In this document: piece by piece, positions 17,949 through 61,300 of the stretch
How positions within the stretch are numbered: the stretch's first letter is position 1
Layout of the letters: each line of letters begins with the position of its first letter
Notes under the pieces: generated by a model
Database searches by the model: none
Told to the model about the DNA's origin: nothing
The model's input: the letters and a program-made list of their open reading frames with translations, nothing else
Assembly (NCBI RefSeq): GCF_964204645.1
Contig: NC_134032.1
Coordinates: 5,258,275-5,322,274 of the forward strand
Direction of reading: 5' to 3'
Length of the DNA: 64,000 nt
Source: Tubulanus polymorphus
Taxonomy: Eukaryota > Animalia > Nemertea
Position numbers and translations under genes: made by a program

Positions 17949-17965
17949 TTTTTTTTATAATGTAA

Positions 17966-29166: not shown

Positions 29167-29181
29167 TTTTTTGATATATAA

Positions 29182-32299: not shown

Positions 32300-32305
32300 C
32301 TTCTT

Positions 32306-34153: not shown

Positions 34154-34300
34154 TTATAATTCATATTTCAAAATTAAAATTGTTTAACACGTTATAATCC
34201 TGTTCATTATTTCCTTTTCTTTTGTTTCTTCTCTTTTAAATTTTAAGTATTCTTCTAAATTGCAACCATAAGCAACTGTATGAATTCCATCATCTAAAAT

Positions 34301-39405: not shown

Positions 39406-39527
39406 AGTAATAGGGTCTTAGTTGTTCTGTATCAAAGGTTGAATGGTCGAAAAATAAATGCGAGTGTGCGAGAATTTATTTTTCGACCCTTCGACCTTTG
39501 GTATAGAACAACTAAAACCCTATTACT
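39406..39527 (-). repeat. 122-bp hairpin right terminus of copy D
   Basis: AGTAATAGGGTCTTAGTTGTTCT...AGAACAACTAAAACCCTATTACT. Confidence 0.9.
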
Positions 39528-40225: not shown

Positions 40226-41442
40226 CAATTTTCTGATGTTGAGACTCTCCTGAATGAACGGAAAATTCAGCCCTACTCATAAGTGGCGATGGCAGATGCG
40301 ACTCGGCGAAGTATGTTCTATACACAGTGATTGATTTATTGAAGAATAAAATCCTTTGCATGTAACTTGTACAAGTAAGATCTTGATAAAGTTTTATGAT
40401 TTCGTAAAGTGTTTGGTATCATGAAAATAGCCCGGAAAAACTTATCAAATAATTCTTTGAGGCTGAACTGAAGATTATTCGTACTACGTTAATGAGCATG
40501 AATAAGACATCAGGTTCTGTAGAAAATCATTTTATCTTTGTTTTGAAATGATTCTTCATTATCTTCTGATGACTCTGGACAACTCTTCTGTGTAACTCAA
40601 TTTAGGTCTGCATTAAGTGGACAAGAAAGTAAACCTGCTTTTTATCCACCAGTAGCTTCAACCCATTACTTGCTTGGAAAACAATGGAATCAAAGTCCTT
40701 TGAAATTACAGGAGGTGATTTGGCACATGAAGATGAATACACTGATGGAGATGGAGCTTCTATGTCATCACTGTTAGAGATTAAGGACCCTTTTCCAAAT
40801 AAACACTGTTCTTTTTCAAGTCATGAAAATAGTTATGGCGTATGGTATGAGTGTGTGCGTTGTGGAGGTCAGGATGATGTGGACGATTTGGTAGTCAAAG
40901 TAAAGTTTCCTGAAGGATAGTAATCTTGTAACACTTTTGAAAGATATGTGATATGCGACACACGCACTTAACGCAGCTCCTTTCACAGTTCTTATTTTTG
41001 CCCACTAAGAACCTGAAAGATAAGAATGCAGAGCTCAAGAAATGAGATTCTTCCGGGGAGGGTGGATCCGAATAGACATAAACAAAATTATATAGGCCTT
41101 TGTATGGAGCTAGGCCTACTAGACGTAAATGTGATAGTAGGCTAAGCTAGTGCAAATGGTTTTCAATGGCCTAAAAGGGATGAAACCAAACGAAATTTTC
41201 TTGAACGGTTTGAGTTTCCGGTTATAAAAACCCTGAAATGAAACAAATTGAGTCGTATTTCTAGAATTGTTTGGGTGGATATGGAGCACCAAAATACATC
41301 AATAGGGTTGGAAGATTAACTCCATACCTACGCCCATGATGCCGACCTGTAAACCAAGTGGAAATTTGTTTGAAATGCACCCAAATTATGATAATTCCTG
41401 TTTTTCCAACTACGTTTTTCACTGTTAATGCGTTTATTAGCC

Positions 41443-41904
41443 AGTAATAGGGGTAATGGGCTTTCATACCAAAGGTCGAACGGTCGAGCCCATTAAAAAA
41501 CAAAACATTAAAAGTAATTAAAAACTATAATATATTTTCATAACCGCGTGCATTTTATATTAAAACTAAATATTTATTCTAAGATATCAATAATTTAAAA
41601 AGCATATTGTAAATAAATCAATTGGTCGCTCCGCTTCGCTCCGCTCCGCTCCGCGACCAATTGATTTATTTACAATACACAAATTCATATAATCAAATAT
41701 ATTCAAATAATAATAATTATTCTATTATTCAACTGAAATGCACGCGGTTATGAAAATATATTATAGTTTTAAATTACTTTTAATATTTGTTTTTAATGAA
41801 CTCGACCATTCAACCTTTGATATGAAAGCCCATTACCCCTATTACTCTTAAAATATTCATATAAATGAATAACATTTAAATCATTGAACTTCTAAAATCA
41901 ATTT
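41443..41904 (+). repeat. Left TIR of copy F; 41443-41846 is a self-complementary hairpin
   Basis: Reverse complement of 57888-58335; starts AGTAATAGGGGTAATGGGCTTTCATA, and TATGAAAGCCCATTACCCCTATTACT ends at 41846. Confidence 0.95.
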
Positions 41905-41926
41905 AGTAAAAAAATATGTATAATAA

Positions 41927-42580
41927 ATGGAACCAGAACAACCACAAACTATCAATATTACAAATAACACTGGTGTCATAAATATATACTACAAGAAATG
42001 TTCTAAATGTGAATTAGATAAATTAGCTTTAACAGAATTGAGTAAGCGTAAGATTAGCAAAGATGGTTTTCAATATTGCTGTAAAACTTGTTTTAAACTA
42101 TATACCAAACAATACCGAGAAGATAATATAGAACATTTTAATTATTATATGGCAGAATATATGAGAGAAAGATATCAAACAGATCTTAATTTTAGATTAA
42201 AACAATGCTTAAGATCTAGATTAACACAATTATTCAACAAAGAAACACATTCAGAAACACTATCTAATTTATTGGGTTGTACAAATGAATTTCTCAAATC
42301 ATGGATAATATATCAATTCGACGATAAAATGAATATAGATAATTATGGTGAATACTTTCATATTGATCATGTGTTGCCGATTTCTAAATTTAACATGAAT
42401 GATGAATACAATAAAAAACTTATTTGGGGTTGGAGAAATTTAAGGCCTCTTGAAAAGAAAGAAAACATAATTAAATCTAATAAACTAGATATACAGTTAT
42501 ATTTAGATCAACTGGATAAAGCAAAGACATTTGTTGAATTATGGAACTCACCACATAATGAAAAATACGTTGAATGTTAA
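41927..42580 (+). CDS. HNH endonuclease with N-terminal CxxC zinc motifs, NCLDV-like
   Basis: KKCSKC...CCKTC; LRSRL...LLGC...FDDKMN..NYGEYFHIDHVLP...NLRPL...N. Confidence 0.85.
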   Translation: MEPEQPQTINITNNTGVINIYYKKCSKCELDKLALTELSKRKISKDGFQYCCKTCFKLYTKQYREDNIEHFNYYMAEYMRERYQTDLNFRLKQCLRSRLTQLFNKETHSETLSNLLGCTNEFLKSWIIYQFDDKMNIDNYGEYFHIDHVLPISKFNMNDEYNKKLIWGWRNLRPLEKKENIIKSNKLDIQLYLDQLDKAKTFVELWNSPHNEKYVEC

Positions 42581-43539
42581 ACGCTTAGAAAACCGGTTTC
42601 TCTCGATCTATGTCAAACCGCCTGTATGTAATTGTATTAGGTTGTTTACAAAAGACATCTGTGCCGTATTTCATATTCAGTTGAATAGGGCGCACCTCAT
42701 TTGAATATTGATCGAACGTGCTATTTCAGTTGAAAAGGATTAATCAATTATATTACAAAAGAAGGAACATCTGTTGCACCAGACGGTGTTTAGCTAGTGA
42801 ATAACTACCAGTTATAAACGCGCAGCACATAAGCATAGGAACGTATTGGATATTCTCTCTTAAAACACGGTTTACAGTTCTAAATCTAAATGTAAGTAAA
42901 TATATTATGAAGTAGGGAAACCTTTAAACATATTTAAGTACAGTAATTCATTTTCACGACATCTTTTAGATTAAAATGGAATACAAAGATGAACCAGAAA
43001 TTCTAAGCCAACCATCGGAAAAGGAACTAATGCTGCTGGATAGTGAAACACAGGAATCAATAGAAATGGAGGATGAAACTCTCGTAACACACTGAAGGTC
43101 TTTAAGATATCAAAAAATGTAATCTCGATTGTATATATCTGTTTTAATATTGTATTGATTACTGTTAACTGTGTATTGCGCAATAACCGGTCCGATTGAA
43201 CCGCTTTTCTATTGTTCTCCATTGTTCTATTATTGATCGTTGTTAATGGCGGCGGTTGCTCAATATTGATTGGTTACAGTTCTATGTTTGAATGTTGTAG
43301 TTAACAGAATAAAAATATAACTGTGTATTGCGCAATAACCGGTCCGATTGGACCGCATTTCTATTGTTCTCCATTGTTCTATTATCGATCGCTAAAATTT
43401 GTATAATAAATATATCTGTTTATGAAATAATATTTCCACCAGTCGTTTCTTTGAATTTATTTTCAGTTGAGGATTTGATATCGAGTATCCGAAATGACTT
43501 ATCTGAACAGTTATAATTACTGCTCCTAATAGATAGACA
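42575..43539. mobile_element. ~0.96-kb foreign insertion inside copy F (unclassified, possibly LTR-derived)
   Basis: Absent from the homologous HNH-downstream region of copy D (33400-33500); higher GC; internal ~73-bp direct repeat (about 43167-43239 and 43318-43391); TG...CA edges but no TSD. Confidence 0.6.
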
Positions 43540-43801
43540 ATAGTAGTCAGATATCAAATAGAATTTAAATAAAATATAATAAAAAAACAATAACTTCAAC
43601 TAGCTAGTGAATTCTATTATATTTTTAATACTTTCTTTTCAAAAAGAGAATACTTTATATTTTGAATAGATTCAAATAGAAAATCTTTAAATTCAAATAG
43701 CTAGTATCAGTAGTCAATACTAGAGTTCTTTAACTTTAACTATCTAGTATCATTTGAAGAATACTTATAATATTTTTTTTTGCTTTTTTCCTCTAATATA
43801 A

Positions 43802-44264
43802 ATGTCAAAGAAATCGAGTAAGAATAATATTGATATTGAAAAGACATTAGATGATTTAGGTATAAGTGATAATAAAGATACAGTTGTTTCTAATTCTATT
43901 CAAGTTAATAACAATATAGATTATGAATACTATTTATATTGTAAGCATCATCTAGAACTATTGATTGCCGGTGGAAAAACTAAAGAGTTTTTAAATAGAA
44001 TCATTACTTATCAAGAACTAGATGCTATGAAACCCGATAAAGTAATAAAATATTTTAAGATTTATGAAGAAGCTAGATTAGCTAGAATAAATGATTCTAT
44101 TTCAGATGGTATTGTCAAATGTTATTCTAAGTTATGTAACCAGTTAATACCAATTGATGATGAAAATAAATTATATAGTGATTTGATAATAAACCTTTCA
44201 TACCAGAAAATAAGTCAAATCATAAAGTCATTGAAAGTAAATCTAAATTATTATTAATGGATTA
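43802..44264 (+). pseudogene. Conserved Polinton hypothetical gene fused by deletion to the tail of the next small membrane-protein gene
   Basis: 5' part matches 32643-33200; after about 44184 an alternative frame reads DNKPFIPENKSN...LLLMD, the C-terminus of the 114-aa ORF at 32306-32650. Confidence 0.8.
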
Positions 44265-44271
44265 AAATAAG

Positions 44272-45353
44272 ATGAAAAAAGAACAATATTTAAGAGATTT
44301 ATATTATAACCCAGAAAGTGAAGTATCATATTCTAACGTTTCAGAATTATGGAATAAAATTAAATCTGATAATAGTGATTTAAAATATGGTGAATTGAAA
44401 TCATGGTTACAAAATCAACCAACATATCAAATCCACAAGAAAATGGATAAAACTTATTTAACAAGAAAAGTTATGGTTCCATATATCGATCAACAATGGC
44501 AAGCAGATTTAATTGACATGAAGAACTTAGAAGAATACAACAAAGGATATTTCTGGATACTGAATGTTATAGACATATTCAGTCGATACGCATGGTCAAT
44601 TCCAATCAAAAATAAAACTGGAATAGAAGTGACAAATGCTTTTAAATCTATATTTAAAGAAGCTATTCCAGATAAGATACAATTTGATGAAGGTAAGGAA
44701 TTTTATAACAAACATTTCAAAAAACTATTATCTGATAACGATGTAAAATATTTTTCAACACACTCAGATAAAAAAGCATCTATTGTAGAAAGATTTAATA
44801 AAACATTGAAAACTAGAATGTGGAAATATCTTACTGCTAATGAAACATACAAATATATCGATGTGTTAGATGATTTGGTGAAAGGTTATAATAATTCTAA
44901 ACATAGTTCTATAAATATGAAACCTATACAAGCTAGAAAAGAAGATAATTCGGAAATAATTTGGAATAATTTATATGGAGCGTTTGTTACACATGATTTC
45001 GGCGAACCTAGATTCAAAATTGGACAACATGTTAGAATATCTAAATATAGAAAAACATTTTATAAAGGTTATACTCCAAATTTTACTGAAGAAATATTCA
45101 AGATTAAAAAGATAATATTAACTAAACCTTTTGTTTATAAATTAGAAGATTTAATAGATGAAGAAATATTAGGTTATTTCTATGAACAAGAATTATCACT
45201 TGTACCAAACCCAGATGAAATAGAATACAAAATAGAAAAAGTATTGAAAAAACTCTTAAAGGAAAAAAGTATTCTTTGGTGAAATATAAAGGATATGATG
45301 ATAAATTTAATGAATGGATTTTATCTAGTAAAATTAAAAGAATAAATGAATAA
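44272..45353 (+). CDS. Retroviral-like DDE integrase; chromodomain-like C-terminus displaced by a frameshift near 45250
   Basis: QWQADL, QFDEGKEF, ASIVERFNKT triad; YKIEKVL / KYSLVKYKGYDDKFNEWI split across two frames. Confidence 0.93.
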
Positions 45354-45957
45354 AGATTTATTTATATTTGAACCGCATAATATGTTAATAACTGGAGTAA
45401 CCAATTGTGGTAAAACACATTTCATATTAGACTTGTTAGAAACTATTTATAAGAATCATTTTGATAATATAATATTATTTTGTCCTACTTATGAAATGAA
45501 TAAAACATATAATAGAGATATAGTTAAGATGAAAAAGTTTATTATATTAGATCCTAAAACAGTAAAAGAAAATTTGAATAATTGTATAAAAATAGAAATT
45601 GATACTTATAAAGGATCAAATACATTATTCATTATAGATGATTGCGCAAATTTACATGATTCAAAAGTGAGAGAAAGTGAGTTATGTTATTTAGCTTTCT
45701 CCGGGAGACATTTTGGGATAACAACTTGGGTTTTAAATCAAAAATATAATTCAATTGTTAAAGACTTTAGAGAAAACATTAGATTTCTAGTTTTATTTTA
45801 TAACAAAGATAAAAAATCTATGCAACAATCATTGGAAGAAAATCAAATTATACCTACTGAATTACATGATGAATATATGAATAAATTAAAGAATAATAAA
45901 GGTCCAAAATTATTACTGAGACTACAATTTCCCTATGAATATAAATTTATAAAATAA
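45346..45957 (+). CDS. A32/FtsK-like DNA packaging ATPase
   Basis: Walker A GVTNCGKT, Walker B LFIIDD, A32-type GRH..I.TW.L.Q motif. Confidence 0.93.
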   Translation: MNKDLFIFEPHNMLITGVTNCGKTHFILDLLETIYKNHFDNIILFCPTYEMNKTYNRDIVKMKKFIILDPKTVKENLNNCIKIEIDTYKGSNTLFIIDDCANLHDSKVRESELCYLAFSGRHFGITTWVLNQKYNSIVKDFRENIRFLVLFYNKDKKSMQQSLEENQIIPTELHDEYMNKLKNNKGPKLLLRLQFPYEYKFIK

Positions 45958-45979
45958 CTATTTATATATCTATGTATTA

Positions 45980-46060
45980 GAAACCCTAATACCTGGTACC
46001 CCATTAGATACCCTAATACCTGATACCCTAATACCTGATACCATACCTGATACCTTAAAT
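45980..46060. repeat. Short ATACC(C/T)-rich tandem repeat between convergent gene blocks
   Basis: ATACCCTAATACCTG reiterated, followed by CCCCCTTTTTT. Confidence 0.7.
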
Positions 46061-46116
46061 ACTTAAAACCCCCTTTTTTATTTACTATTATTTTATACAA
46101 TTTTCAACCTTTATTA

Positions 46117-46953
46117 TTATTTGATTGTTAGATAATTAATTTCTGAATCACTTTCACTATCAGACCCTAACAATTTATTCAAATGCTCTACTGTATCTTC
46201 ATAAATAATTGGTTTATTGATATACTTATTAGGCATCTCAACTATATCTTTATTTTCTGATTTATGTTTCATAGAATCTTTATTATCAAAGTTATCATTA
46301 TTTTCTACTTTATGTTTCATAGAATCTTTATTAGTGTTTGCTCCTAATATTTCATTTACAGTGTTTGATTCTAATATTTCATTAGCATCGGTTAGATCTA
46401 ATTCATCTTTATTAGGTGTTGCTAATAATAAATCTTTATATAATTCTTTACCATTTACTTTTTGATTTGAAACAAATTTTGTAACATATCTAAATGGGTG
46501 TTCTATAAATTCTTTTAAACCAACACGTTCTATTACATTAGTAATATGTGAATTTGTATTCATATGTTTATTCCAATTTGATGGAGCGTTTGAAAATTCA
46601 CCTTTACAATAATTACAATAATTTCTATTTTTACTAACATTTAATATTATTGCATTATTATACGTAGAAGGTATTACATTATTAGATGTAGTAGGTATTA
46701 CATTATTAGATGTAGTAGGTATTACTGTAGTAGGTATTACTGTAGTAGGTATTACATTATTATCAATTACATTACTTAAATTATCAACAACACCACTTTT
46801 ATTATTATCGATTTCTATTAGTTTAGTTTTATAAATTTTGAAAATAGGATCAAATATCAAAGCTATATTACAAGGTATTACATAATATAAACCATCATTA
46901 TTTTCATGTGTATCGATGTATGGAATATGTTTATATACTTTACCTCCTTCCAT
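46117..46953 (-). CDS. Zinc-finger protein with internal peptide repeats
   Basis: CNYC-x12-H-x5-H finger; VIPTT repeats; DNKDSMKHK-type duplicate; acidic tail. Confidence 0.7.
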   Translation of the reverse strand: MEGGKVYKHIPYIDTHENNDGLYYVIPCNIALIFDPIFKIYKTKLIEIDNNKSGVVDNLSNVIDNNVIPTTVIPTTVIPTTSNNVIPTTSNNVIPSTYNNAIILNVSKNRNYCNYCKGEFSNAPSNWNKHMNTNSHITNVIERVGLKEFIEHPFRYVTKFVSNQKVNGKELYKDLLLATPNKDELDLTDANEILESNTVNEILGANTNKDSMKHKVENNDNFDNKDSMKHKSENKDIVEMPNKYINKPIIYEDTVEHLNKLLGSDSESDSEINYLTIK

Positions 46954-46985
46954 TTATTATATATATTTTTATTAAAGTTAAAATT

Positions 46986-48233
46986 TTAATACATAACACT
47001 ATCTAATTGTGAATTTACAATATTTAATTGCGCGTCAGATATAATATAAATGTGCATTTTAAAATTTTTGATTCCTTTATTCTTTGTCATGAATAATTGT
47101 ATTCCATCTTTAGTGTTTTGTAGTTTTTTTCCAGAACCATGTAATGAATTATCCTCTGTTGTTCTAAAATCTAACCATAATGCATATTTATTGCCGGTAT
47201 AATAATCAATTTGATTAATGTTACAATTTTCAGATGATTTTACTTTTTCATTCATAAAATGTTTTCTAATTTCTGGCCATTGATCAATCATTCTCATTCC
47301 TTGACAAAATATTTTATTTGCTATTCCTTCGATAGTTATTTCTACTTTTGTTATTTCAGGATTATAATAATTATCAACATTTATTGCGCCATTAGTATAT
47401 GTTGCAATGGTAAAAAATATTAATATACCTTTAATAGATCTTCTTAAAAAGTTAATATTCTCATTAATTATTTCATCATTTGCATTAATAGTTACGGTTT
47501 TAAATTTATCAATATAATCATATAATAATGAAAATCCTTGATTGTACTTAGTTTGAATTATACTTGAAATATTTTCATCAGTTACTGTATCATATTCTAA
47601 ACATATATTCGATAATTTATAACTCATATCTTTATTAACGCTAGATAATACAATTTCATTTACAGGAGCAAATGTTATTTCGAATATAATATCTTCTTGA
47701 ATTGCGTATTTATATAAAGGTGCATTATTATTTATCAATTCAAAGTCTAATGGAATTTTATATTTGCTTCCATATATACTTTTTATCAATTTATCTACAG
47801 CATTAGTTAATATTGCGCTATTAGCTTCTGATCTTAATTTATTTTGGTTTTCTGATTGGATGCCTTGAAATATCATATTATTTCTATTTTCTTTAGTTAA
47901 CCATAAATCTTTATAATGCATAAATAAATTATAATCATCTAATGAGAAAACTGTTTCCGGACCAATCTTTATTGTTAACTTTTTAATCAAATATCTTCCA
48001 ACATTATCAACAACATAATTATTATTATTACCGATTACTTTTATATCGGCCGATAAATAAATACTATTTGGAACATAAAAAGTATTTTGTGTTAATCGAG
48101 GAATTCTAACGTATAAAGTTTCATCGGGATTAATATTTGAAGGGTTATGAGTAATTATACGATGTGATCTTTCTGCTTTAATAGCATTAGATATTCTATG
48201 ATTCTTAGAAGGATTGATATAACTCCCACTCAT
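46986..48233 (-). CDS. Major capsid protein (double jelly-roll, predicted)
   Basis: Intact 415-aa beta-rich ORF; PSNINPDETLYVRIP, IKKLTIKIG, YKIPL, LSNICLEYD, YALWLDF resemble Polinton MCP; size and context fit. Confidence 0.8.
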   Translation of the reverse strand: MSGSYINPSKNHRISNAIKAERSHRIITHNPSNINPDETLYVRIPRLTQNTFYVPNSIYLSADIKVIGNNNNYVVDNVGRYLIKKLTIKIGPETVFSLDDYNLFMHYKDLWLTKENRNNMIFQGIQSENQNKLRSEANSAILTNAVDKLIKSIYGSKYKIPLDFELINNNAPLYKYAIQEDIIFEITFAPVNEIVLSSVNKDMSYKLSNICLEYDTVTDENISSIIQTKYNQGFSLLYDYIDKFKTVTINANDEIINENINFLRRSIKGILIFFTIATYTNGAINVDNYYNPEITKVEITIEGIANKIFCQGMRMIDQWPEIRKHFMNEKVKSSENCNINQIDYYTGNKYALWLDFRTTEDNSLHGSGKKLQNTKDGIQLFMTKNKGIKNFKMHIYIISDAQLNIVNSQLDSVMY

Positions 48234-48257
48234 TTATTTAACAAAAAAATTGATTAT

Positions 48258-49736
48258 TAATTTTTAATCATGGTTACTTGATATCTTTTGATACCATATT
48301 TACTAACCCAAAAATAATAGCACTTACAACTGTAATTAAAAATAAAATAATATGTTCAGCAGCAAAGTTAATAATGTTTCCTGCAGATTTCAATATAAAA
48401 CCAAAAATTGATGCAATAATTCCTGGCAATGCTGCAGCAGATTTTTTAGATAGTTCCCATAAATATTTTGCTAATTTCTTTAAACCATCTTTAACTTTAT
48501 CTTGTATAGAATTATTATCATTCGGGGTTTATCCGGTTTATTGGGAGTAGGAGTAGATTTCAAAGAATTTGATATTGCTAAACAAATTGTTGTAAATAAC
48601 ATAGTTACAGCTGTTAGAATTGAAAGAATTGTTATTCCTTCTAATTTAAAAAATAACTTTATTCTATCTTTTAATGATATTCCAGAATTTGGTTTTATTA
48701 GATATCTTTTAAAAACATCTTTTAATCTTTTAAAATTATTACCAAATTCTTTTAATAATATATCTCTTTCACCTTTTTGTACTTCTAAACTATCTTTTAA
48801 ATTATCAATTTCTTTTTCTAAACGTAATTCTTTTTGTCTATACTCTATTTCATCAATTACTTGTCGTTCTAAATCAGACTTTAGTTGTTCTATTTCTTCA
48901 TTTGCATTAGTTAATTCTTTTTCCAAATACATAATTTTTTGATCTCTTATACTTTTATTATGTGCAATTTTATCAGCTTCATTTCTTATACTTATAATTT
49001 CTCTAATTGCTTCATCAGAAAATATATTTAAATCTTCTAATTGTTGATCTGTTGCATCAAGTAATCCATTCGGTAAAAGTTTTTCAGTTTGAACTTCGTT
49101 TGATTTAATTTTACTAGTTTTGGAAGTTTTATTCTGTTCAGAAGTTGTTTCTGTTTTTGAATTATTTTTGATTGTTTCAAATAATTCATTAATTCTTTGT
49201 TTAAATACTCTTTCATTTTTAATAATTTCTTCTTGTGTTACATTTTCTATTTCATTACTATTTCTTATTCTTTTAATTCTAGATAGGTCTAACTTAAGCA
49301 AAGTTGATTCTTTTAATATTTTGTGTTGTTTTTTATAAGAGATATCAATATAATAATCACCAGTCAAATGATAATAATATTCACCATCTAAAAATTCTAA
49401 ATTTTGTGCTAAAATTCTGGCGTCTCTAAAATTTATATTATATTCAGATCTTTCAAATATATGTTGTAATCTAAGCGCTTGGTTTATATTTTCTAAATCT
49501 TGTCTTATTAAATATGGATTTTCATTTTCAGGATTTATTCTCGATCTAGTTCTTCTATCAAATTCATCTGTTGATGGGACTTTAGAACCACTATCTGCTA
49601 AATTAGAATTATATGTTGTATCATTATCATTATCAATATTAGTATCAGCAGTCATATAATCATCATTGTTAGTATTGGCATCATCATTATTTCCCATGTT
49701 TTCCATTTCATAATCTTCTCCACCTTCTACATCCAT
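48258..49736 (-). pseudogene. Acidic/coiled-coil protein with C-terminal membrane segments, frameshifted near 48525
   Basis: 418-aa ORF; the hydrophobic tail (AAALPG.IASI.GFILK...) continues in another frame and is in frame in copy B (18898-19323). Confidence 0.75.
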
Positions 49737-49752
49737 TTACATAATAAAAAAA

Positions 49753-51176
49753 TTAAAATTTAAAATATAATATTCCTCCGATTACAATTCCTATACAAGT
49801 TATAGCTAATTTAGTATTTTCATGGGATTTATTATCATCATTTAATTATATCATGTTGAATAATATCAGTTTTTATATTTTCTGATGTATTATAATCTTT
49901 TATTTTAGAATCATTATTTAATTTAATATTCTTAGTTTAAGTTTCTGTTGATTGAATGTGTTTTTTATTTTTTTCACCTTCCATTAATTTTGGAGCAGTA
50001 ATAATCTTTTTATTTATATCATTCAATCCAAATGAATTATTTATTGTTGCAGTTTTAATAAGATTATTATAACCAATTATGTTCCCCATCTTTAATACTA
50101 AATCATTAGAAATACTTAATAGATTAGGGCCTATACAATAATTAAGCCTTACATGAGATTTATCTAAATAATTTTGATATCTTATAATGTTTTCTGGAAT
50201 CGATCTATTTTTATCATTATGAATTGAATCTTCAAATAAAACTTTAAATTGTTTTTGTGTATCGAATGATGTATTCAAATTTCCAAATATCGGTGATCTT
50301 GTTTCAACTTGTGATCCTAGAATACAAATCAAATAAGTTCTAATAGATTGATTTATTCTTTCTATACCTGATTTAGTAAAACCATCACTATTTTCTAAAA
50401 TAAAATAAACCCAACCATTATTGTTTTCTTGTTTTAAATGATCATAAAATTTCGGTAATTTATTGAAATTTAATGTTTCTAAATCCTTTGTTTCTATTTT
50501 ACCATAACCTAATTTATTATTATAGATATTATAAAAACTATTAGATGGTATGGGAAGTGCACAATATTCTGCAACCTTTTTAGGGCAAGGAAGTGATCTT
50601 ATTGTTCCAATTTTTGTTCTAAAATCAGAATTATTTATATCTATATCAAATTCATTACAAATTTTATAAAACTTTGATAAATTAATATTATTATCTAATT
50701 CTTTAATCGATCCTGGTAAAGCACACTCCTGATAAAGCATATATATATAGATATAGATCCTGGTAAAGCACACTCTAATTCATTTAATATTATTCTGATT
50801 TGAAAGTATGTATGAAATCTAAATAAACTTTGAATTAGTTTATATTTAGAATTATTCAAATGATCATTCCAACTTATTCCACATCCTGTTGTTGAACAAT
50901 AAACAGCAAAATTTAATTGATTCTGCCAATACTTCATATTAGATTTTAATAACCATTGTTTTTCATCTTTCAATTTTTTAAAATTAATTAAATATACATG
51001 AAATATATTTTCCATCTTTGCATTAAAATAATTAGTTTCAGTAACATAAATTTCTAAATTAGTTAATGAATCTAAAACTTGATTCTATATGTTATATCTT
51101 TATTAAAATCTATTGCTGAAATATTATATTTAATTGATTTATTATATTGGAAAGCTTTTGGAAAACTATCTGCCAT
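49753..51176 (-). pseudogene. ~460-aa conserved Polinton protein with C-terminal transmembrane anchor, disrupted
   Basis: Pieces 50695-51015 and 49937-50773 join (WQNQLNFAVYCSTTGCG; INQSIRTYLICILGSQ); tail LAITCIGIVIGGILYF; homolog at 16644-17948. Confidence 0.78.
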
Positions 51177-51192
51177 TTATATAATTAAAAAA

Positions 51193-51627
51193 TCAATAAT
51201 TAACTAATTCTTTTAATAATTTATCTTGTTCTTCAACTGTTATATGACCATTTAAACTTATGATATAATCTAGTGTGTTCTTTAATTTATTAATTTCTTT
51301 TATATTAGTTTTAATTTTTTCTTTATTACTTTTTATATTTAATTTTGAACTTATACCGGTTAAAACACTTGAACTTAATCCTAACACACCAATTGATATA
51401 GCTAAAGGTGTTAATGGGCTGAATATTGCTAGAAATGTTATTACAGAACTAATTGTAACCGAACCACTTATAATCAAATAATATATAATTTTACTTTTTA
51501 GATATTTTTTCTTTTTTATCTTTAAGTCACTTTCAAATTCTAATATTTGTTTTTCTAAATATGTTTTTAATTTAGTTTTATTTATATCATGAGGAATAAT
51601 ATCAATACTATCAACTTTATCTTCCAT
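51193..51627 (-). CDS. Two-helix membrane protein
   Basis: IIYYLIISGSVTISSVITFLAIF and LAISIGVLGLSSSVL; homologs in copies B and D. Confidence 0.75.
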   Translation of the reverse strand: MEDKVDSIDIIPHDINKTKLKTYLEKQILEFESDLKIKKKKYLKSKIIYYLIISGSVTISSVITFLAIFSPLTPLAISIGVLGLSSSVLTGISSKLNIKSNKEKIKTNIKEINKLKNTLDYIISLNGHITVEEQDKLLKELVNY

Positions 51628-51646
51628 TTATTTAGCAAAAAAATAA

Positions 51647-52069
51647 TTAATTAGTAAACTTATAAGCAACAAATATAACAATAACAGTTCCGCCTAAAAT
51701 CCAAATTATTTCATATTTCTTCTGTTCATTACTTGGGGTATAATAATCTGACAATTTAGGTTTGTATAGATGTAATTTTTCTTTATTGGTTACCGCGTTA
51801 TATAAACTCATTGCATCATCAACTGATTGAAAATCTCTATGTGAAATCTTCTGATCATATAATTCTTTATTGATGTAATCCATATAGTTTTGTCGTTTTT
51901 CTGTATATTCTTCTGCAGCTTTATTATATTTCTCTAACGCTAAGTTATGCCTTCTTTGTTCTCCTAATGAACTATTTTTATCAATATGTTTAAATAAATA
52001 ACCGCCACCAGTAAATGCTAAAGCGTTAACAATTGCCGATCCTATAATAGTTATAATTGCAGAAGCCAT
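51647..52069 (-). CDS. Small protein with N- and C-terminal hydrophobic helices
   Basis: MASAIITIIGSAIVNALAFTGGG...; IIWILGGTVIVIFVAY; conserved across copies. Confidence 0.75.
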   Translation of the reverse strand: MASAIITIIGSAIVNALAFTGGGYLFKHIDKNSSLGEQRRHNLALEKYNKAAEEYTEKRQNYMDYINKELYDQKISHRDFQSVDDAMSLYNAVTNKEKLHLYKPKLSDYYTPSNEQKKYEIIWILGGTVIVIFVAYKFTN

Positions 52070-52093
52070 TTATTTAACAAAAAAATTATGCAT

Positions 52094-52315
52094 TTATATG
52101 GGAGGAATATATTTTTGTTTTTCCAAATAATCAATAGTTAAATTAGATAAAGTAACTGCTAATGTTAATTTTAAAATATCATTTATATCAAATCTATCAA
52201 CATTAACACTTCCCATCTTGAATACTTTTTTTAATACCATTGAATAACCAACAGTTCCAACTGATAGTAATGCGCCATTATATAATCCAGTTATTATCCA
52301 CTTATTATCACTCAT
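52094..52315 (-). CDS. 73-aa hydrophobic protein
   Basis: Nearly identical intact ORF at 29542-29763. Confidence 0.75.
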   Translation of the reverse strand: MSDNKWIITGLYNGALLSVGTVGYSMVLKKVFKMGSVNVDRFDINDILKLTLAVTLSNLTIDYLEKQKYIPPI

Positions 52316-52675
52316 TTATTTATCAAAAAAATTACTATCATCAAAATATTTAGTTATCTTAGTGATGATTATTTCAACATTTATTTCATTACTAGTTTTA
52401 TGATTATCATATATTTCAATTATTATTTTTTTAATATCATCGATGATAAAATCTTCATCTAATTCATAAAATCTTAAAGATTCTCTAATTAAATTAGTAA
52501 TCTTTTCTACATTTAAAGTTTCTTTATCTATTGTTGTTTCATACTCAAATGTTGTTTCATTATAAAATGCAATATTTTTGATATGTGTAATTACATAATT
52601 AACGTTAAATTTCATTTCTTTCTCATGTTTAAAATCAAACCCAAAACATATACTCGGTCCAACAGTTATATTCAT
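52316..52675 (-). CDS. 119-aa hypothetical Polinton protein
   Basis: Open homologs at 15683-16024 and 29182-29541. Confidence 0.75.
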   Translation of the reverse strand: MNITVGPSICFGFDFKHEKEMKFNVNYVITHIKNIAFYNETTFEYETTIDKETLNVEKITNLIRESLRFYELDEDFIIDDIKKIIIEIYDNHKTSNEINVEIIITKITKYFDDSNFFDK

Positions 52676-52691
52676 TTATATAATGAAAAAA

Positions 52692-53447
52692 TTACTCTTT
52701 ACATCTTATAATTAATTCATATATCACAGGAAAGTTATTCAAATCAATTAAATATCCATTGTGATTTCTTATTTCTAACTTAAAATTATTAAATTTTGGA
52801 ATACAAGGTTTGAAATCACATTCTGTTAAATTATAATTTATTTGAGTTCCAAATTGTTTAACATTTTTTAGCGGTAAAATATTTAGTATACTAGAATTAC
52901 AAATTGTTTCTTTAGTTGCTTCGAAAGTTTTTGTAGGCTCGATTAAATTGCAATAAATATAAAAGTGTGTAAAAGGTATTATATTTGAGCTGCCTTCTGC
53001 GTTTCCAGTAACTGTAAGCGGTTTAATTCCTAACGTTTTAGCCAGTGGTTTGTTTACCATAAATTTATGTTGTTCATTAGATATCTTTATTCTAATTTTA
53101 TTAGTACTATCAATTTTATTAAATTTAATTTCAAATACAGAAGTGCCCCCGATTTTCAACCGAGCTCCTCTATTAATTTCCTGCGCTAATGATTCTAAAT
53201 TATATAATCCTGGTTTTAAAAATATATGAAACCATTTATCTTTATTTCTCATATAAATCATAAACCCTCTATGTTCAAAAGTTTTATCCGATACATTGCA
53301 AAAAGAATTACCTAAACTTATATTAACTAATTTTAAATCAACACAATTTTTGAATTCTCTATCTAATTGTACTAATAAATTATGTGATTTATAATTTGTA
53401 AGTTTTCTAGAATCTACAAATATTCTGTATTCTTTTAATTCTACCAT
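52692..53447 (-). CDS. Minor capsid protein (penton, single jelly-roll, predicted)
   Basis: N-terminal IFVDSR, FYIYCNLI, C-terminal LEIRNHNGYLIDLNNFPVIYELII, typical of Polinton/NCLDV pentons. Confidence 0.72.
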   Translation of the reverse strand: MVELKEYRIFVDSRKLTNYKSHNLLVQLDREFKNCVDLKLVNISLGNSFCNVSDKTFEHRGFMIYMRNKDKWFHIFLKPGLYNLESLAQEINRGARLKIGGTSVFEIKFNKIDSTNKIRIKISNEQHKFMVNKPLAKTLGIKPLTVTGNAEGSSNIIPFTHFYIYCNLIEPTKTFEATKETICNSSILNILPLKNVKQFGTQINYNLTECDFKPCIPKFNNFKLEIRNHNGYLIDLNNFPVIYELIIRCKE

Positions 53448-53461
53448 TTATTTTACATATT

Positions 53462-53815
53462 TTATTCGAAATCTATTTCATGGTGCCCTTTTTCATTATT
53501 ACCTTTGTATACGAAATAGAAATATCCAGAACATAATTCTTCTAAATCTTCACTTGATAATCTATGAAATCTATCCGGTAAATATGTTCTGAATTTATAT
53601 GTATTTCCTTTTAATCCTTCATATTCTAAGTGTATAACTAATTTATCTCCATAGTTATTAGTAACTGTATCAATATTTGTAATTAGATATTTCTTATGGA
53701 TTATTAATTCTGTTAACTTTTTGAATTTATAATCTACAGATTTTACATTTGTAGTATCTTTAATTCTATCTAGAAATAATTTGTTGTTCTCACTGTGCGC
53801 TTGTTTACTCTCCAT
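53462..53815 (-). CDS. 117-aa protein, possibly an OB-fold ssDNA-binding protein
   Basis: FKKLTEL...YLI...TNNYGDKLVIHL...FRTYLPDRF; conserved in copies B and D; function inferred. Confidence 0.6.
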   Translation of the reverse strand: MESKQAHSENNKLFLDRIKDTTNVKSVDYKFKKLTELIIHKKYLITNIDTVTNNYGDKLVIHLEYEGLKGNTYKFRTYLPDRFHRLSSEDLEELCSGYFYFVYKGNNEKGHHEIDFE

Positions 53816-53844
53816 TTTAATAACATATTTTTATTAAAATTTGA

Positions 53845-56800
53845 TTAACACGTTAGAATTCTTTTCATTATCTCGTTCTCTTTTGTTTCTTCTCTTTTAA
53901 ATTTTATGTATTCATCTAAATTGCAACCATAAGCAACTGTATGAATTCCATCATCTAAAATATATCTTTTATCATCAAATGGGTTTAGACTTATCTTTTC
54001 AATTTCTTCAATAAACATTTCGTGGTACTCAGATCTTAAACATCTCATCTTATGTTTTCTAACTTCTTCATTGAATATACAATTGATGTAATCTTTGAAA
54101 TGAATATTCTTTTCTACTACACTTTTGGTTATTCCTTTTAACTTTTTAGCTTCATGTTCTTTAGTTTTATATGAATACATTTTAGATCTAATACCAATGA
54201 ATTCAATCGTTTCTTCACCGCCTAATTCATCTTTGAATATACCGGGAACTTTTTTATTATCATTGCTAAACAATTCATGATCTTTAGGATAGTTACTAAA
54301 ATCAAAATGATGTTTTAATGTTTTTAAATCATCAGTTATGTTATCAGTTTTTATCTTTAATATGTAAGAATCTGTATCAAAATATATTATTTCTGTATGT
54401 TTTTCTCCAAAAAGTGGTTGTAATATATTATAATAGAATTCATACACTAGTAATTTTGATAATTCTAAAACTGAAGCGCCAACATAGATTGGTTTATTAA
54501 ATTTCATTGATGTTCTTCTCATCTTAACTGCGGCTAAATTTTCATCAAATATTCTGTTACCAATGAACTTAGGATATGTTTGTAAATGTCTAATTCTTTT
54601 ACCATTACTGACTAACTCAATATCATTTCTATTTCTAATATTTTCACAAGTCTTACCATAGAATGCATTATTCATTAACTTGAAGAAATCTTTCTCAAAA
54701 TCAGTTTTAGCTTTAGTTCTCTGTTTGGTGTTAAAATCTATATATTTTTCTAACCACTTAGATTGACTAAATGAAATATATCTATGTACTTTTTTTAGAA
54801 TCATTCCTTGATTTAGATAAAACTTTAACATTCTGTAATGTACTACATAATTATATTTATCTTCTTGAGTTACCATTAACTTTTCTGTATGAATATGATT
54901 TTCGGGTTTAATTCTTTTTTGGTAATTTGATAATTCTTCATGAGTTACAGTTTTATGTTCGGGACAGTAAGCTAGATTTCTAGATTTAAATTCAATATGT
55001 TCAGGATATTCTAAATCTACAACAAAGAAGTAACCAATATCTGAATCATCTGAAATATCTAGAATTCTTTTCTTCCAATTAAATTTATCATTATTTTCAT
55101 TCTGTAAAACTTCACTTATTTCAAATACTCCATAAGGTTGTGGTACCATCATTGCCCAACCATACAAATTATTTGCATCTATATATAATAACTTATATCC
55201 AGGGTTATCATTTACATTGAAATATCTATCACCTAATACACCTGAAACACCTCCTCTTATAGATTTTTCAAATAATAGTAATTGATCTATATTTGTTAAC
55301 AAATCCATTTTTATATCTGTAAATTTTAATCCACAATCCCATGTTAATCCTGGTGATGAATAACAATGACAAGGATCAATATTGAAATATTTTAGGTTTA
55401 CATCTCTAAACCTTTCGAATATATCGGTTAATAATAATACATCTGATTTTAAATATGAATCTACTAATTGCCCATGATTTTCTATTTTGAAATGATTCCA
55501 AATATTCAATGTTCTATTATAGACTTCATCTTTAACATAATCATTTTTTAATTCATCATAAAATTGTTCTTTTAATAATTCAGTTTTGTTAAAATCATTA
55601 TGATTTTTATAGAAAGAATATGGAATTGCTCCTTTATATCTCATTAATTTAAAATCATCAATATTTGGGTAGTGTTGTTTTAATATTTCTAATTCATCAT
55701 CAACTAATGATTTTGATAAGTTATCTAATGAACTATTTAAAAATCTATATGAATTTATAAATCTTAAACACCCAAATTGGAATGATATATAATTCTCAGA
55801 TGTTTTAGCTAACATTCTAAATTTATAAGTTGGTATTTTATCTTTTGATCTATTTGAATTAAATATTTCTATTTCATTATTGATTTCTTCTATTTTATGG
55901 CATAACTGTTTGATAAATAAATGTGCATCATATCCTGAAATATAACTGGTACAAAGTTAATTTTCTTAGCTTGTAAGTTACAATTCTCATGTGCAGCGCC
56001 TCTAAACTTTCCGTTCAAATGATCATGGTCTCTTACTTTTTTATCTTTATAATTAAATATCTTTTCACAATAATAACATTTATCTGCAAACGCAAATGGT
56101 TCTTTATCTTCTTCTGTCATTATAATTTCTATATTTGTATTCAATAATTTACTAAATCATATTCAATTAATAAGTCACAAAAATGATTGATAACATTTTC
56201 ATTTCTGTAATGATAATATTCACTTTCAATTAGTTCTGGATAATCAGATTTTATATATAACCCGAAAGCAGCAGCTGATTGATGAATCTTTTTAATAGTA
56301 TTTGTTTTTGGTGGTTCATCTGAAAAATCATTTTCATTACAATTTAATTTCTTTCTTTTATAATATATATCTTTTCTATCTTGATCAGTTAATTCTTTAT
56401 TTAATGATTCAAAATCTCCATATATTACAAATGGTACTTTATTTTTGTAGTCATATTTTTTGAATTCTAATATTTTATCTTTTTCATTTGGTAAAACTAA
56501 TTTACAATAATCATGATTTTCACATAATTGTTTATGATTTAATAATGTACTTTCATTACTGAATCTATGTAAACATTTTCTACAAAGATATATTTTATGG
56601 TGATCATTTTCTGATTTAAAAAATAAATCGATTTGTTTAATCCACATATAATGATTCTCATAATATAGTATATCTATGCAATGGTTTGAATCATAATCTT
56701 TTGATAGATATAAAGGTTCTAATGTATAATGTTTTATGTTGTTACCTTTTGTATTTGGTAATTTGATTAAATCAAATACATTTATCTTTATATTATTATC

Positions 56801-57865
56801 TCTTTCTATTTTTGGGATGTTTTTAATTCTAACAGGATACTTATCTATCTTATAATTATTTTCAAATGGTTTATAATGAGTTAATCTAAAACTATGTGTA
56901 ATATCTTCTGTTGGATGTAAACAACTTATTATAGCCCATAGAAAACATTTATCATCTTCATTTTGTACGTTTATAACAGCATTAGTTTTAAATGGTAGTT
57001 TGATATAACTCGATGCTTCAATATCTGGTTCTTTATAATATGATACATTATTTTCATCGATTGGTTTTGATTTAGTTAACTTATTATATTTTGTGTTATA
57101 AACATGTAAAGTCATAAATATTATTTCATCAAATATTAAACCAGATCCTTCAAAATATTTCTCTTCTATTTTAGTTTTTACTTCATTATAACATTTATCT
57201 AATTTATCATCTATATGTTGTTTAGATATAATATGTTGTGAATGAGAATTTATATTATATATTGGTTCATCTTCAGATTTTATAAACTTTACTTTAGAAG
57301 ATATACTTATTTTAGGATATTCAACATCTGTAATTATTTTTATTATTTCTTTCATATTTTCTAAATGTTTTTTATTTTCTTCTAATGTTTTACCTTTATG
57401 AAATTTAAACTCGATAGCTGCTGGGCCAATATCACTTTTAAATGCTTCGGTTATCTCTATATCTTTTTTATTATCTAATGAATTAATATAATTTCTTACA
57501 TCTTCCATGTATGGTCTTTTATTGTTTAATTTATTTTTTATGCTTTTAATTGTCTTCTGTTTCTTATCGTTATCATTATCAAAATAATCTTCACCTAAAA
57601 TATCATTATTCTTATTTCTAATATGACTTATAGATTTTAAATGTTCTTTATAATATCTTTTATCACTGAATGATTGATTACATGTATCACATTTGTATGT
57701 TTCTTTTTCATTCTTTAATTCTTCTAATTTAGTTTCTAATATATCATCTTTATATTCTAGTTTCAATTTATTCTCTAAATGTGTTTTAGTTTTATTGTGT
57801 CTTGCTTTTTGGGATTTATCTATGTTGATATTACATGTTGGACAGTAGTACTTATTTGCTTCCAT
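53845..57865 (-). pseudogene. polB: Protein-primed family B DNA polymerase (~1340 aa) with two small frameshifting deletions
   Basis: YIDANNLYG, KLMNNAFYGK, YFDTDS; N-terminal C2H2 fingers; DDKCFLW...NHYMWI (vOTU-like); DHDHLNGKFRGAAHENCN (EndoVII-like); deletions near 56155 and 55920 relative to copy C. Confidence 0.95.
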
Positions 57866-57887
57866 TTTAATACTAAATTTTTTATTA

Positions 57888-58335
57888 AAATTGATTTTAG
57901 AAGTTCAATGATTTAAATGTTATTCATTTATATGAATATTTTAAGAGTAATAGGGGTAATGGGTTTTCATATCAAAGGTTGAATGGTCGAGTTCATTAAT
58001 AACAAAACATTAAAAGTAATTTAAAACTATAATATATTTTCATAACCGCGTGCATTTCAGTTGAATAATAGAATAATTATTATCATTTGAATATATTTGA
58101 TTATATGAATTTGTGTATTGTAAATAAATCAATTGGTCGCGGAGCGGAGCGACCAATTGATTTATTTACAATATGCTTTTTAAATTATTGATATCTTAGA
58201 ATAAATATTTAGTTTTAATATAAAATGCACGCGGTTATGAAAATATATTATAGTTTTTAATTACTTTTAATGATTTGTTTTTTAATGGGCTCGACCGTTC
58301 GACCTTTGGTATGAAAGCCCATTACCCCTATTACT
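57888..58335 (-). repeat. Right TIR of copy F; 57946-58335 is a self-complementary hairpin
   Basis: Near-identical inverted copy of the left TIR; loop has 2 TCCGC units versus 5 on the left. Confidence 0.95.
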
Positions 58336-61300
58336 TTAGCCGTTAGTAAACGGAGGATATCACTTTTCATCATCGGAGCATCCTTTTCATCCTCCCTTTG
58401 ACTAAAGCAGACACCAATCTCAAGGTCCTTGTATAAAATTGTGTTGTGTTTTAGGGATTAAAAACTAACTACACATGTAACGGCGAAGCCTTTATCTAGT
58501 TCGGTGTATTTTCGTCGCGAGATTAATTCGACGAGTTCATTTCAAAAAGTCTGTCCCAAGCAATCAGAGCGCTATAATGATCACGTCATTGATTAGAGTG
58601 TTTTGATTAGTAGTCGAATCTGAGTGAAGATACGTGTTTTGTTAAAAATAAAGGGGACAAATAATAATCACGGCGATAACAATAGGGTTTTCTGTGAAAC
58701 AACAGAAAACCCTAATAATAATATCTAATAAATGTATAAGTATTGTATACGTCATCCTCGCTTGCCAGGGACCCGGTATCGCTCCCCAAACTCGCTTAAA
58801 CAGCTTAAGCGTAGTGTCTACTGGATATCCACCATGAAGGTTAAGAAGGAGACGTTGATGGAAAGCTTTTTAAAGGTTTTTCGTGTGTCGGTCAGGTTTC
58901 AATAAGAGGAATGAATGGACGTTTTATTAACGTTTAAGAATAAAATTTTTCGAAACGTTTCTTCAAGGTTTTCAAGGTTTTGACAAGGTTTCTTATGTTT
59001 TTTATGTAAAAACGTTTGTGAAACGTTAAAATGTTCACGGGATAACATTTCAGAAACGTTTCAAAAGAACTTTTCCAATACTAAACCTTGAACGTTCTTA
59101 TGTTAGCTAGGTATGCCGCGCATGAACATGGGATTTTCAACACTGTAGAAGATCCTTGTCATTTCTCTTTTAGTTTATGTAGATAGGATGAGGTTTACTA
59201 ATCTTATCCAGTTCATATCTTTTGAAGTGGGCAATTCCACAGCTCGCGTACAATGGACCGGTTTGCTGAGTTGAAAGACGCCAGCTGCCTACGCGCGTGA
59301 ATGAGTGCCGGTCTTGTGAGTGCCCAAAATACATTCCTAAGCCTCGTATCATAACCAAAATGAAAGGTGAAAAAATTGAGTCCACAAAAATTATACAATG
59401 CTTGTATTATTAATGTATGCAAACACAGCATTATTGAATAATAGATACTATCAAATTATACACAATTTCAACAATAATTTCTAATGGATGCTTTTTGAAC
59501 AATGGAATTGGAAACGACTTATCTAAATATCTAGCTTATATGACTCGTATGTCAAATGTATTTATAGGTTTTATCGAATGAAATGAATTCTCACTGAACA
59601 ATCATGAACATCATCCTAATCAGATCAAAGTCAATTATATCCTGATCTGGCTTGGGTAGACTTGACCGTAATTATTTAGAATTTTTGATAAATACATGTT
59701 TTGATCATCTAGTACCATATGAGCATTTATTATCAATCGAAGTGTGTTTTGTTAAAATAACGCTCAATGGAATTTTACAATTGACGTCTTGGCGTAACGA
59801 AGGTGGTACAGTGTTTTCTGGATTGTGTTAACGATTATTGGTTCCCCATCATTGAAACAAATTCTGAAATGGAAAAGTAAAATAAAGGTCAAGAATATAG
59901 CTACAAATCAGCGATACTGCAGTTTTCAATTCTGTAAGTAGGAAAGGTACCTATGACTTAGTATCGACAATAGGCAGTGACATGGCTAACAGATTAATCT
60001 ATCATCTTTAGAAGAATGTATAACTTAACCAGCTAAGCGCCGTTGTTGGTCAGCTTTTTTCAACCTTAATTGCCAACTTTTGTCTTCATCAGCCCAGTAG
60101 CAGATGGCATGTTGCACATAGGTACATTCACATATATCCCAAGATATATGAACTGTGTAATGAAAAGTTATGAATAAAATCTAAAAACTATATTCTAAAT
60201 TGAGTTTTTAAAGATGTACGCCCCTAGCGGTAAAAGTGAGTTTACTTATTGTGTAAAGTTTATGCTGTCATTTGACATTCAATACGTGTGTATCAACTTG
60301 CATCGAAATCCCTTTACCCAATTGAGGTGGCACTAGTGAAACATGGATAGACGAATCCAGGAAGAAAGACACTCTAAATATTTGGATAGATATATGAAAG
60401 CTGTGGGTACTGGAGTGTTTAATGGGTAGTGTAGTGTGATCTGTGTGCATTTGTGGCCAGCACACAGATCACATTGTTCAATGGGGTTTGGTCCAGGACT
60501 CGCGAGATTTTCAACAACACGGAAGTAACGTGTAATAAATGATGACTTGAATTGCATGACTACCTACCACCCCTCATTATTGTTGGAAAACTAAACGTTC
60601 GGCACTGACTAAAAATTAGTAATAACATTTTAGAAATGGCCAGAATTTTAACTTAGGTTCTATCTCATTTTTATTTTACAATTGCGATTGGTATAATTTT
60701 TTTTTAAACGGCCGTTTCGCCTGCAATTCACTGCAAATAGTTACGCAACTATGCACATTTCAGTGTTTTTGGCAGCTTTACGTACACTCAACCGGCACCG
60801 TTCGTGACTAGCTTCACTGCGGAATTATCATTAATTAAAATCGCCATATCACATCATCAACTTATATTGTGCCTTAAAAACCTAACAGCCGAAATAATTG
60901 AAATGCACACACGATTTCTATCATTGAAAATTGAGAGAGTGGCCATGTTTGTGTTTGCTGCTTCGCGTAAATCCCGCGCGGTGGCACATCCGCGCGGAGT
61001 GGGGCCGATACGTCAAGAGCCACCCTGTCAAACGATACATTATCATAGGTGTAATTAATGGCTTCTGAATACAATCAATGGCTAGTGGAACCACAGTTTC
61101 CTTCTAAGGAGCTAGAAGCTAAAAACTGCTCTTGTAAATCGGGGTAGCCATATATACCCCCATAGCGCCACAATGGTTGGGCCTAGAAAGGTGCAACCAC
61201 TGGAAAAATTGACAACTGGTTGCTATAACTTTTCCACTGACATCAAGCTGAAATCCAAAGTATTTCAATTTTTGTCAATCAAACAACTTTTGGATCTCTG

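Follow-up and report, generated by a model that had tools for sequence, protein, structure and literature searches.

Mavirus and the endogenous mavirus-like elements, paired with Cafeteria roenbergensis virus (CroV; PMC8547959), and the polinton-like viruses (PLVs) of Tetraselmis, paired with TetV-2 (10.1101/2025.10.09.676808), are described as integrated small double-stranded DNA viruses in which one motif matches the late promoter of a large virus. Virophages are known to be activated through promoters that they share with their helpers, and the differences in motif between clades of endogenous mavirus-like elements have been taken as tuning to different giant viruses (PMC8547959). Here, we analyze copy F, a 16.9-kb Maverick/Polinton element of the nemertean Tubulanus polymorphus, found in a 64,000-nucleotide stretch of contig NC_134032.1 (positions 5,258,275 to 5,322,274; assembly GCF_964204645.1). 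We refer to this whole stretch as the window and give all coordinates relative to it. Most genes of copy F start at TAAATG. These signals are probably promoters read by the RNA polymerase that a pox-like helper virus supplies, which would make the element a virophage-like Maverick. As in the mavirus-like elements and the Tetraselmis PLVs, the clades of Mavericks differ in motif, which would imply different helpers. Unlike in mavirus and CroV, the motif is TAAATG instead of TCTA, the gene set is of the Maverick type, and the host is an invertebrate animal.

The closest precedent is the PLVs from entomopoxvirus occlusion bodies, proposed to be parasites of poxviruses (AHEV_PLV1/2 and CBEV_PLV1; Barth et al. 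2024, PMC11296320). Two of them are described as diverged members of the mavpol-capsid group. Compared by this description, they differ from copy F in encoding an adenovirus-type protease and a PLA2-like protein, and AHEV_PLV1 has no known integrase, while copy F has an rve integrase and a protein-primed DNA polymerase B (pPolB) with an EndoVII domain. In its architecture, copy F is like the animal Mavericks or "adintoviruses" as described by Starrett et al. (2021, PMC8502044), with terminal inverted repeats (TIRs), a 6-bp target-site duplication (TSD), pPolB, rve integrase, A32/FtsK ATPase and a double jelly-roll capsid protein; in contrast to that description, no adenain-type protease was detected. 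By its TIRs, TSD, pPolB, integrase, ATPase and capsid, copy F is a member of the Maverick/Polinton group.

The promoter classes to which we compare copy F are those of vaccinia virus. In its late promoters, TAAAT(G) is described as overlapping the start codon, and the 10th nucleotide upstream is a conserved T surrounded by further Ts; its intermediate promoters are described as TAAA without that T, preceded by an AT- or A-rich stretch 15-19 nt upstream and then a T (PMC11980589). According to the structural account in PMC12917281, TAAA is read directly by the polymerase, and the length of the spacer, about one helical turn, is important. In the literature covered, mostly titles and abstracts, with subscription papers and supplements outside the scope, there was no report of TAAATG or of a poxvirus-type promoter in Polintons. 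The word "promoter" is absent from the texts of PMC11296320, PMC8502044, PMC11131425, 10.1101/2024.03.23.586382, 10.64898/2026.10.13.758929 and 10.64898/2026.06.19.733378; the text of PMC11296320 also has no "motif", "transcription" or "upstream", and that of PMC8502044 no "helper".

Start-codon signals in copy F and its relatives

A first-pass annotation of the window had reported TAAATG at 12 of the 15 start codons of copy F. All 12 positions are confirmed in the sequence, as are TAAAATG at polB (57865) and g14 (53815) and TAAGATG at the integrase gene (44272). The enrichment that it proposed to test is clear, as TAAATG is seen at 12/15 starts and, within 41900-57890, at 33 of the 616 ATGs that are not starts (5.4%; Fisher p=1.5e-12). 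The enrichment persists against three other backgrounds: TAA precedes 18 of 329 sense-strand non-starts and, true starts excluded, 32 of 441 ATGs that come first after a stop (binomial p=7.9e-12), and its frequency within the spacers themselves is 44/555. None of the 616 non-start ATGs combines a run of five Ts (T5) with TAAATG. Outside the element, TAA-ATG was seen at 15/378, 2/152 and 5/202 ATGs in parts of the window where ATGs are not gene starts.

Two types of sequence lie upstream of these starts. The T-run that the annotation had noticed is present in eight of the 15 genes, while six carry an A-run instead and the integrase gene neither. The T-run class, which is like vaccinia late promoters, comprises the capsid gene, g2 and g7-g12, with the T-run spanning position -13; the A-run class, like vaccinia intermediate promoters, comprises polB, g14, g1, g5, g13 and the ATPase gene. 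At the position of the "10th nucleotide" of late promoters, there is a T in all eight T-run genes and an A in all six A-run genes. TAAAT(G) over the start codon is found at 12 of 15 starts in copy F and 49 of 57 in relatives, and the intermediate arrangement (TAAA, no T at the 10th position, A-rich sequence 15-19 nt upstream and then T) in six of 15 genes. The spacing is fixed: T is at -12 in 13 of the 15 copy F starts and in 46 of 49 starts of relatives, where T is also at -13 in 38/49 and A at -18 in 38/49. Thus, the annotation's equation of T-run plus TAAAT(G) with poxvirus late promoters matches the consensus described in PMC11980589, and the likeness to vaccinia as described there and in PMC12917281 extends to the T about 10 nt upstream, the A-rich stretch of the intermediate type and the fixed spacing. 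The differences from vaccinia are that the sharpest T lies at -12 from the ATG, not more than one base away from the "10th nucleotide" of the review, that no early-type promoter class was seen, and that the motif is carried by a 17-kb integrating element in which no RNA polymerase was detected.

The motif is kept in other copies in the window, as the annotation had stated: of 20 distinct starts, 17 read TAAATG, two TAAAATG and one GAAGATG. These remain from 26 alignment rows after removal of two that were copy F itself and four duplicates. The requirement that a row align across the start biases the set towards conserved sites. Between copies, 77 of 78 bases are identical at -3..-1, compared to 131/156 at -9..-4 and 271/312 at -30..-18 (rows not deduplicated).

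Beyond the window, a capsid profile search gave 40 metagenomic loci and two more in genome contigs; no relatives of the capsid or ATPase were found in IMG/VR. Among starts with a homologous N-terminus, TAA-ATG was present at 39 of 46 from the 14 loci whose capsids are at least 50% identical and at none of 37 from 13 more distant loci, several loci being near-duplicates. In 12 non-redundant loci (L002 and L014 dropped; all mechanically called ORFs), the count was 49/57. The motif is kept by L006 and L007 at a GC content of 0.40-0.44, where the background is 6/121 and 4/179 (2-5%). In the capsid tree, the motif-bearing rows form one side of a branch with 100/98 support under midpoint rooting (36 rows after removal of duplicates and fragments: 14 with the motif, five without it, and 17 for which there was protein but no DNA sequence). 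Hence, the motif is a trait of the clade rather than an effect of base composition. The run class is constant in the closest relatives for g5, g13, g2 and most capsid and ATPase genes.

The signal could also be a by-product of compact packing, in which AATAAA is the poly(A) signal of the upstream gene, TAA a stop, the T-run a terminator or splice tract, and A-rich sequence a Kozak context. Since AATAAATG stands at eight of the 12 TAAATG starts, the overlapping poly(A) hexamer was tested as a rival. Spacers are mostly shorter than 50 bp, as the annotation had it (9/14 as ORFs were called, three longer ones being inflated by frameshifts), and T-runs often follow closely behind the upstream stop. 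In coding DNA of copy F and L001-L023 (two clades), sense-strand T-runs are avoided, T5 being at 0.49 and 0.47 of expected, compared to 0.89 and 0.92 in viral controls. This is compatible with U-tract termination, and the T-run may double as a terminator. Still, this explanation is largely refuted by head-to-head genes. At genes 19-72 bp apart, 14 of 16 head-to-head starts have TAA-ATG, and both TIR-adjacent genes carry the signal as well, in each case with no gene of the same strand upstream; just five of the 16 read AATAA-ATG. The polB signal, in particular, lies inside the right TIR with no gene upstream. The routes by which the annotation itself could have been refuted, namely splice acceptors, Kozak context and stop-start coupling, all failed when tested. 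AG is absent between T-run and ATG in 8/8 T-run genes. TAA serves as the upstream stop at one of the 12 copy F starts, and the stop abuts the start (gap 0) in one of 36 tandem cases. T is at -3 in 40 of 46 starts of the clade, compared to a purine in 31 of 37 distant-locus starts; for eukaryotic translation, a T there makes a poor start context. We consider a packing by-product highly improbable.

Neighbouring Maverick clades have a different signal and no TAAATG. In L016, L017, L019, L020 and L022, TATA is within 22 nt of the ATG at 22 of 35 starts (background 57/868), with a T-run 8-10 nt before it at 14/35 (7/868), and in L015, L018 and L023, it is equally close at 10/10 starts (44/268). 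These starts have a purine at -3. A TATA that near the ATG cannot be the gene's canonical TATA box. The arrangement, T-run-N9-TATA, resembles the late initiator of African swine fever virus (ASFV), TA(+1)TA, which is described together with a median late 5' untranslated region of 9 nt (PMC7163114); this likeness is to the neighbouring clades (L015-L023), not to the clade of copy F. Clade-specific motifs also fit a lineage-intrinsic promoter design.

Candidate polymerases for the signals

The fixed spacing matching the vaccinia consensus, the presence of the signal at head-to-head starts, T at -3 and the conservation within the clade independent of GC content argue for promoters. On these grounds, the promoter part of the annotation's proposal is well supported; the helper itself was not found in motif scans of IMG/VR. 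We propose that the multisubunit RNA polymerase of a co-infecting pox-like virus would read the T- or A-run and TAAA(T)G signal of each gene. The post-replicative polymerase of the helper would initiate inside TAAA, and slippage would add a 5' poly(A) leader, in the manner in which vaccinia post-replicative mRNAs are described to acquire such leaders at TAAAT (PMC7163114). Given a leader made by slippage, neither a templated leader nor a Kozak context would be needed. The A-run genes would be expressed first, like vaccinia intermediate genes, and the T-run genes later, like late genes. Progeny particles would then bring the genome to new cells, where the integrase would insert it with a 6-bp duplication. 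Most likely, copy F is predicted to work like a provirophage.

Several points weigh against a pox-like reader. Among the loci examined in two motif scans of IMG/VR (eight in the first, at least 120 in the second), there was no poxvirus-like helper locus. The eight included one ASFV-like isolate contig, mimivirid-like and phage contigs, and L048/L052; in the second scan, none was poxvirus-like among those with the highest shares of TAA-ATG, and the pooled count was 120 of 785 starts. The motif is short and not exclusive. In contigs that we take, from their sequences, to be prasinovirus-like, TAA-ATG stands at 5/15, 5/14 and 5/16 starts, about a third, so the hexamer alone cannot name the helper. 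Prasinoviruses are not known to have an RNA polymerase of their own. A 165-kb large-virus contig has TAA-ATG at 4/14 starts. Moreover, all motif-positive loci form one clade and therefore represent a single evolutionary event, not independent repeats. Because the run class switches for some genes between relatives (g14 is in the T-class in L003, g10 in the A-class in L009, and the capsid gene in the A-class in L006), the two-stage intermediate-to-late cascade is only a suggestion from the A-/T-run split. A specific avoidance of TTTTTNT was rejected, the avoidance being general (T5NT 0.29 and T5NG 0.30 of expected). AATAAA is not avoided in coding DNA (193 observed, 180 expected), which speaks for a pox-like reader, but the count was made without a host-gene control. 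Finally, bulk RNA of corals is described as showing expression of polintovirus hallmark genes for about half of 49 elements (PMC11131425). This argues against a dependence on helpers throughout, while the clade of these elements may differ.

Two large contigs in the first scan had features of their own. L048 and L052, both 165 kb, are AT-rich, encode homologues of eIF2-alpha and a class II tRNA synthetase, and have TAA(A)ATG at 6/14 starts; their motif match was rejected as out of frame with the next ORF.

The main rival, and the one surviving the tests, is that the promoters are real but serve as non-canonical initiators for the RNA polymerase II (Pol II) of the host nucleus, which a factor encoded by the element, such as g8, may redirect. 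The element would then be autonomous, and its likeness to poxviruses convergent or ancestral. The very high copy number agrees with this. In run X1, 19,333 of 951,646 contigs match the element (window 39700-41630 and 41950-57840), and in run X5, comprising raw reads from another sample under the same species label, the depth is ∼2,700 in the TIR and 0-31 in the flank. As 1,619 + 500 raw reads of X5 join the terminus (41443/41442) to unrelated flanks at this high TIR depth, the family comprises at least hundreds of insertions, and a nuclear, helper-free cycle explains them more simply. A lineage-intrinsic design could explain why neighbouring clades share the two-part geometry with another initiator. 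Also in favour of Pol II, g8 is conserved and has no structural match, and the coral polintoviruses transcribed in bulk RNA include some described as encoding a VLTF3 homologue (PMC11131425). On the other hand, five head-to-head pairs are just 19-30 bp apart, leaving no room for the canonical distance from TATA to start; transcripts starting inside TAAA would have hardly any leader beyond what slippage adds; a T at -3 is unfavourable for eukaryotic translation starts; and nuclear poly(A) hexamers are not avoided. On balance, we regard transcription by Pol II as rather unlikely.

An improbable third explanation is that the promoters are relics of a helper-dependent ancestor, with copies now spreading by host read-through and the integrase, and no living helper. 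The frameshifts of copy F in polB, g8, g7 and the integrase gene, the fragmentary state of the other copies in the window and the failure of the IMG/VR motif scans to reveal a helper all agree with it. Against it, the near-identity of positions -3..-1 between copies exceeds that of the positions further upstream, and the motif has persisted while capsids diverged by 50% and GC content shifted from 0.20 to 0.44. Such persistence and identity require continued selection in the lineages producing copies. Reading by a pox-like helper thus remains the explanation that we prefer.

Genes, termini and copies of the element

The first-pass annotation had placed the element at 41900..57890. The element is indeed there, and its TIRs, TSD and the raw reads set the true limits at 41443-58335 (Table 1).

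Table 1. Features of copy F, with the start signal and run class of each gene
Feature	Position	Strand	Start signal, class	Evidence or remark
Left TSD	41437..41442	+		TTAGCC; same hexamer at 58336-58341
Left TIR	41443..41935	+		inner end contains g1 start signal
g1, EndoVII/HNH-type endonuclease	41927..42580	+	TAAATG, A-run	PHROG phrog_1035, E 2e-13
g2, conserved, function unassigned	43802..44257	+	TAAATG, T-run	shorter than relatives
rve integrase	44272..45347	+	TAAGATG, neither	PF00665, E 1.2e-9; frameshifted near end
A32-like packaging ATPase	45346..45957	+	TAAATG, A-run	PF04665, E 1.5e-12
g5, function unassigned	46117..46953	-	TAAATG, A-run	
Major capsid protein, double jelly roll	46986..48233	-	TAAATG, T-run	predicted model, pLDDT 84
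Capsid gene upstream, example T-run signal	48234..48250	-		T7 at -16..-10, TAA at -3..-1
g7, coiled-coil protein	48286..49736	-	TAAATG, T-run	hydrophobic C-terminus; frameshifted
g8, conserved core gene	49768..51176	-	TAAATG, T-run	in four frames in copy F
g9, SLATT-like protein with two transmembrane segments	51193..51627	-	TAAATG, T-run	below curated cut-offs
g10, conserved small protein	51647..52069	-	TAAATG, T-run	hydrophobic ends
g11, conserved small hydrophobic protein	52094..52315	-	TAAATG, T-run	TAA doubles as g12 stop
g12, function unassigned	52316..52675	-	TAAATG, T-run	
g13, putative minor capsid protein	52692..53447	-	TAAATG, A-run	from size and conservation
g14, small gene adjoining polB	53462..53815	-	TAAAATG, A-run	
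polB, pPolB with EndoVII domain	53845..57865	-	TAAAATG, A-run	PF03175, E 3.6e-13; PF02945, E 2.3e-6
Right TIR	57857..58335	-		contains ∼392-bp imperfect palindrome
polB upstream, example A-run signal	57866..57890	-		AATAAAAAA, T at -12, TAAA at -4..-1
Right TSD	58336..58341	+		TTAGCC

Both replication and integration genes pass the curated Pfam thresholds, the integrase with 38.8 bits for PF00665 (cut-off 32.6) and polB with 49.7 bits for PF03175 (cut-off 25.8). An intact relative of polB has 1,363 aa (84%), and the weak PF03175 match suggests a divergent class, Beta PolB. Two other polB relatives, P0188 and P0215, have intein Pfam matches, PF14890 with PF14528 or PF05204. The predicted capsid model matches the capsids of PBCV-1, iridovirus and mavirus in Foldseek (E 1e-16 to 1e-11); with the mavirus capsid, it has a common fold at only 10-12% identity.

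The core gene g8 has 1,372 homologous representatives at E<=0.001, and its intact relative at L003:2996-4324 has a confident predicted fold (pLDDT 88). Still, it has no match in Pfam, NCBIfam, PHROG, Atlas or PDB sequences, or by fold (best VIA Z 3.8). The candidate minor capsid protein g13, conserved at 251 aa, has zero matches in Pfam, PHROGs, NCBIfam and PDB sequences. The annotation's label of g14 as SSB-like has to be dropped, as there is no family match in Pfam, PHROGs or NCBIfam. The same three databases gave no RNA polymerase family match among the ORFs of the element and no peptidase or protease family match, with g2, g5, g8 and g12 unassigned. Relatives of g1 are present in two mimivirid-like large-virus contigs, L043 and L044, which do not have the start-motif pattern of the element, and could possibly be a trace of gene exchange with large viruses.

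The TIRs are ∼490 bp long, with 94% identity between left and right. The outer ∼405 bp of the left TIR are an imperfect palindrome with a predicted DNA hairpin of -122 kcal/mol. Long imperfect palindromes are found at termini at 41443-41847 and 57944-58335 in copy F (∼400 bp) and, in two further copies, at about 14347-14500 (∼155 bp) and 39406-39530 (∼120 bp). The four palindromic ends have a common stem base, and the orientation of their arms is alike too, as judged by eye on the printed sequence. Together with the EndoVII domain of polB, the terminal palindromes may point to fold-back priming or hairpin resolution.

The window contains at least four more copies, fragmented and rearranged, with 70-92% identity, at 36-3258, 14341-20073, 24048-34300 and 35145-40193. 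In the copy at 14341, the left terminus runs straight into g14, and polB is absent. Contigs matching the element number three in run X6, three in X7 and seven in X8, runs whose kind is unrecorded or guessed to be RNA and whose counts have no bearing on expression; X6 and X7 look like one data set. In run X9, zero contigs matched the left end of the element. No Rfam or tRNA matches were found. Outside copy F, window ORFs include a weak GDSL/SGNH match (62105-63001) and a weak DUF6451 match (36209-36895), both presumably retroelement-derived.

Implications for Maverick biology

Helper-type promoters would be surprising for animal Mavericks. The mode of transcription of animal Polintons and their autonomy are matters of debate that the clade-wide, position-exact likeness to poxvirus late and intermediate promoters makes directly testable. 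If a pox-like helper does read these signals, virophage-style dependence would reach from protists to the integrated elements of animals, and start-signal motifs would help to predict the large virus infecting a host without a known poxvirus.

A broader reading, which we hold as tentative and somewhat doubtful, is that many animal Mavericks parasitise large DNA viruses of the cytoplasm in the way of virophages, with start signals recording the helper: poxvirus post-replicative transcription, with an intermediate-to-late cascade of the clade's own, in this clade, and an asfarvirus-like TATA in its neighbours. If true, pox-like viruses should exist undiscovered in aquatic invertebrates, and the hundreds to thousands of germline copies would constitute an inducible anti-poxvirus reserve in an animal.

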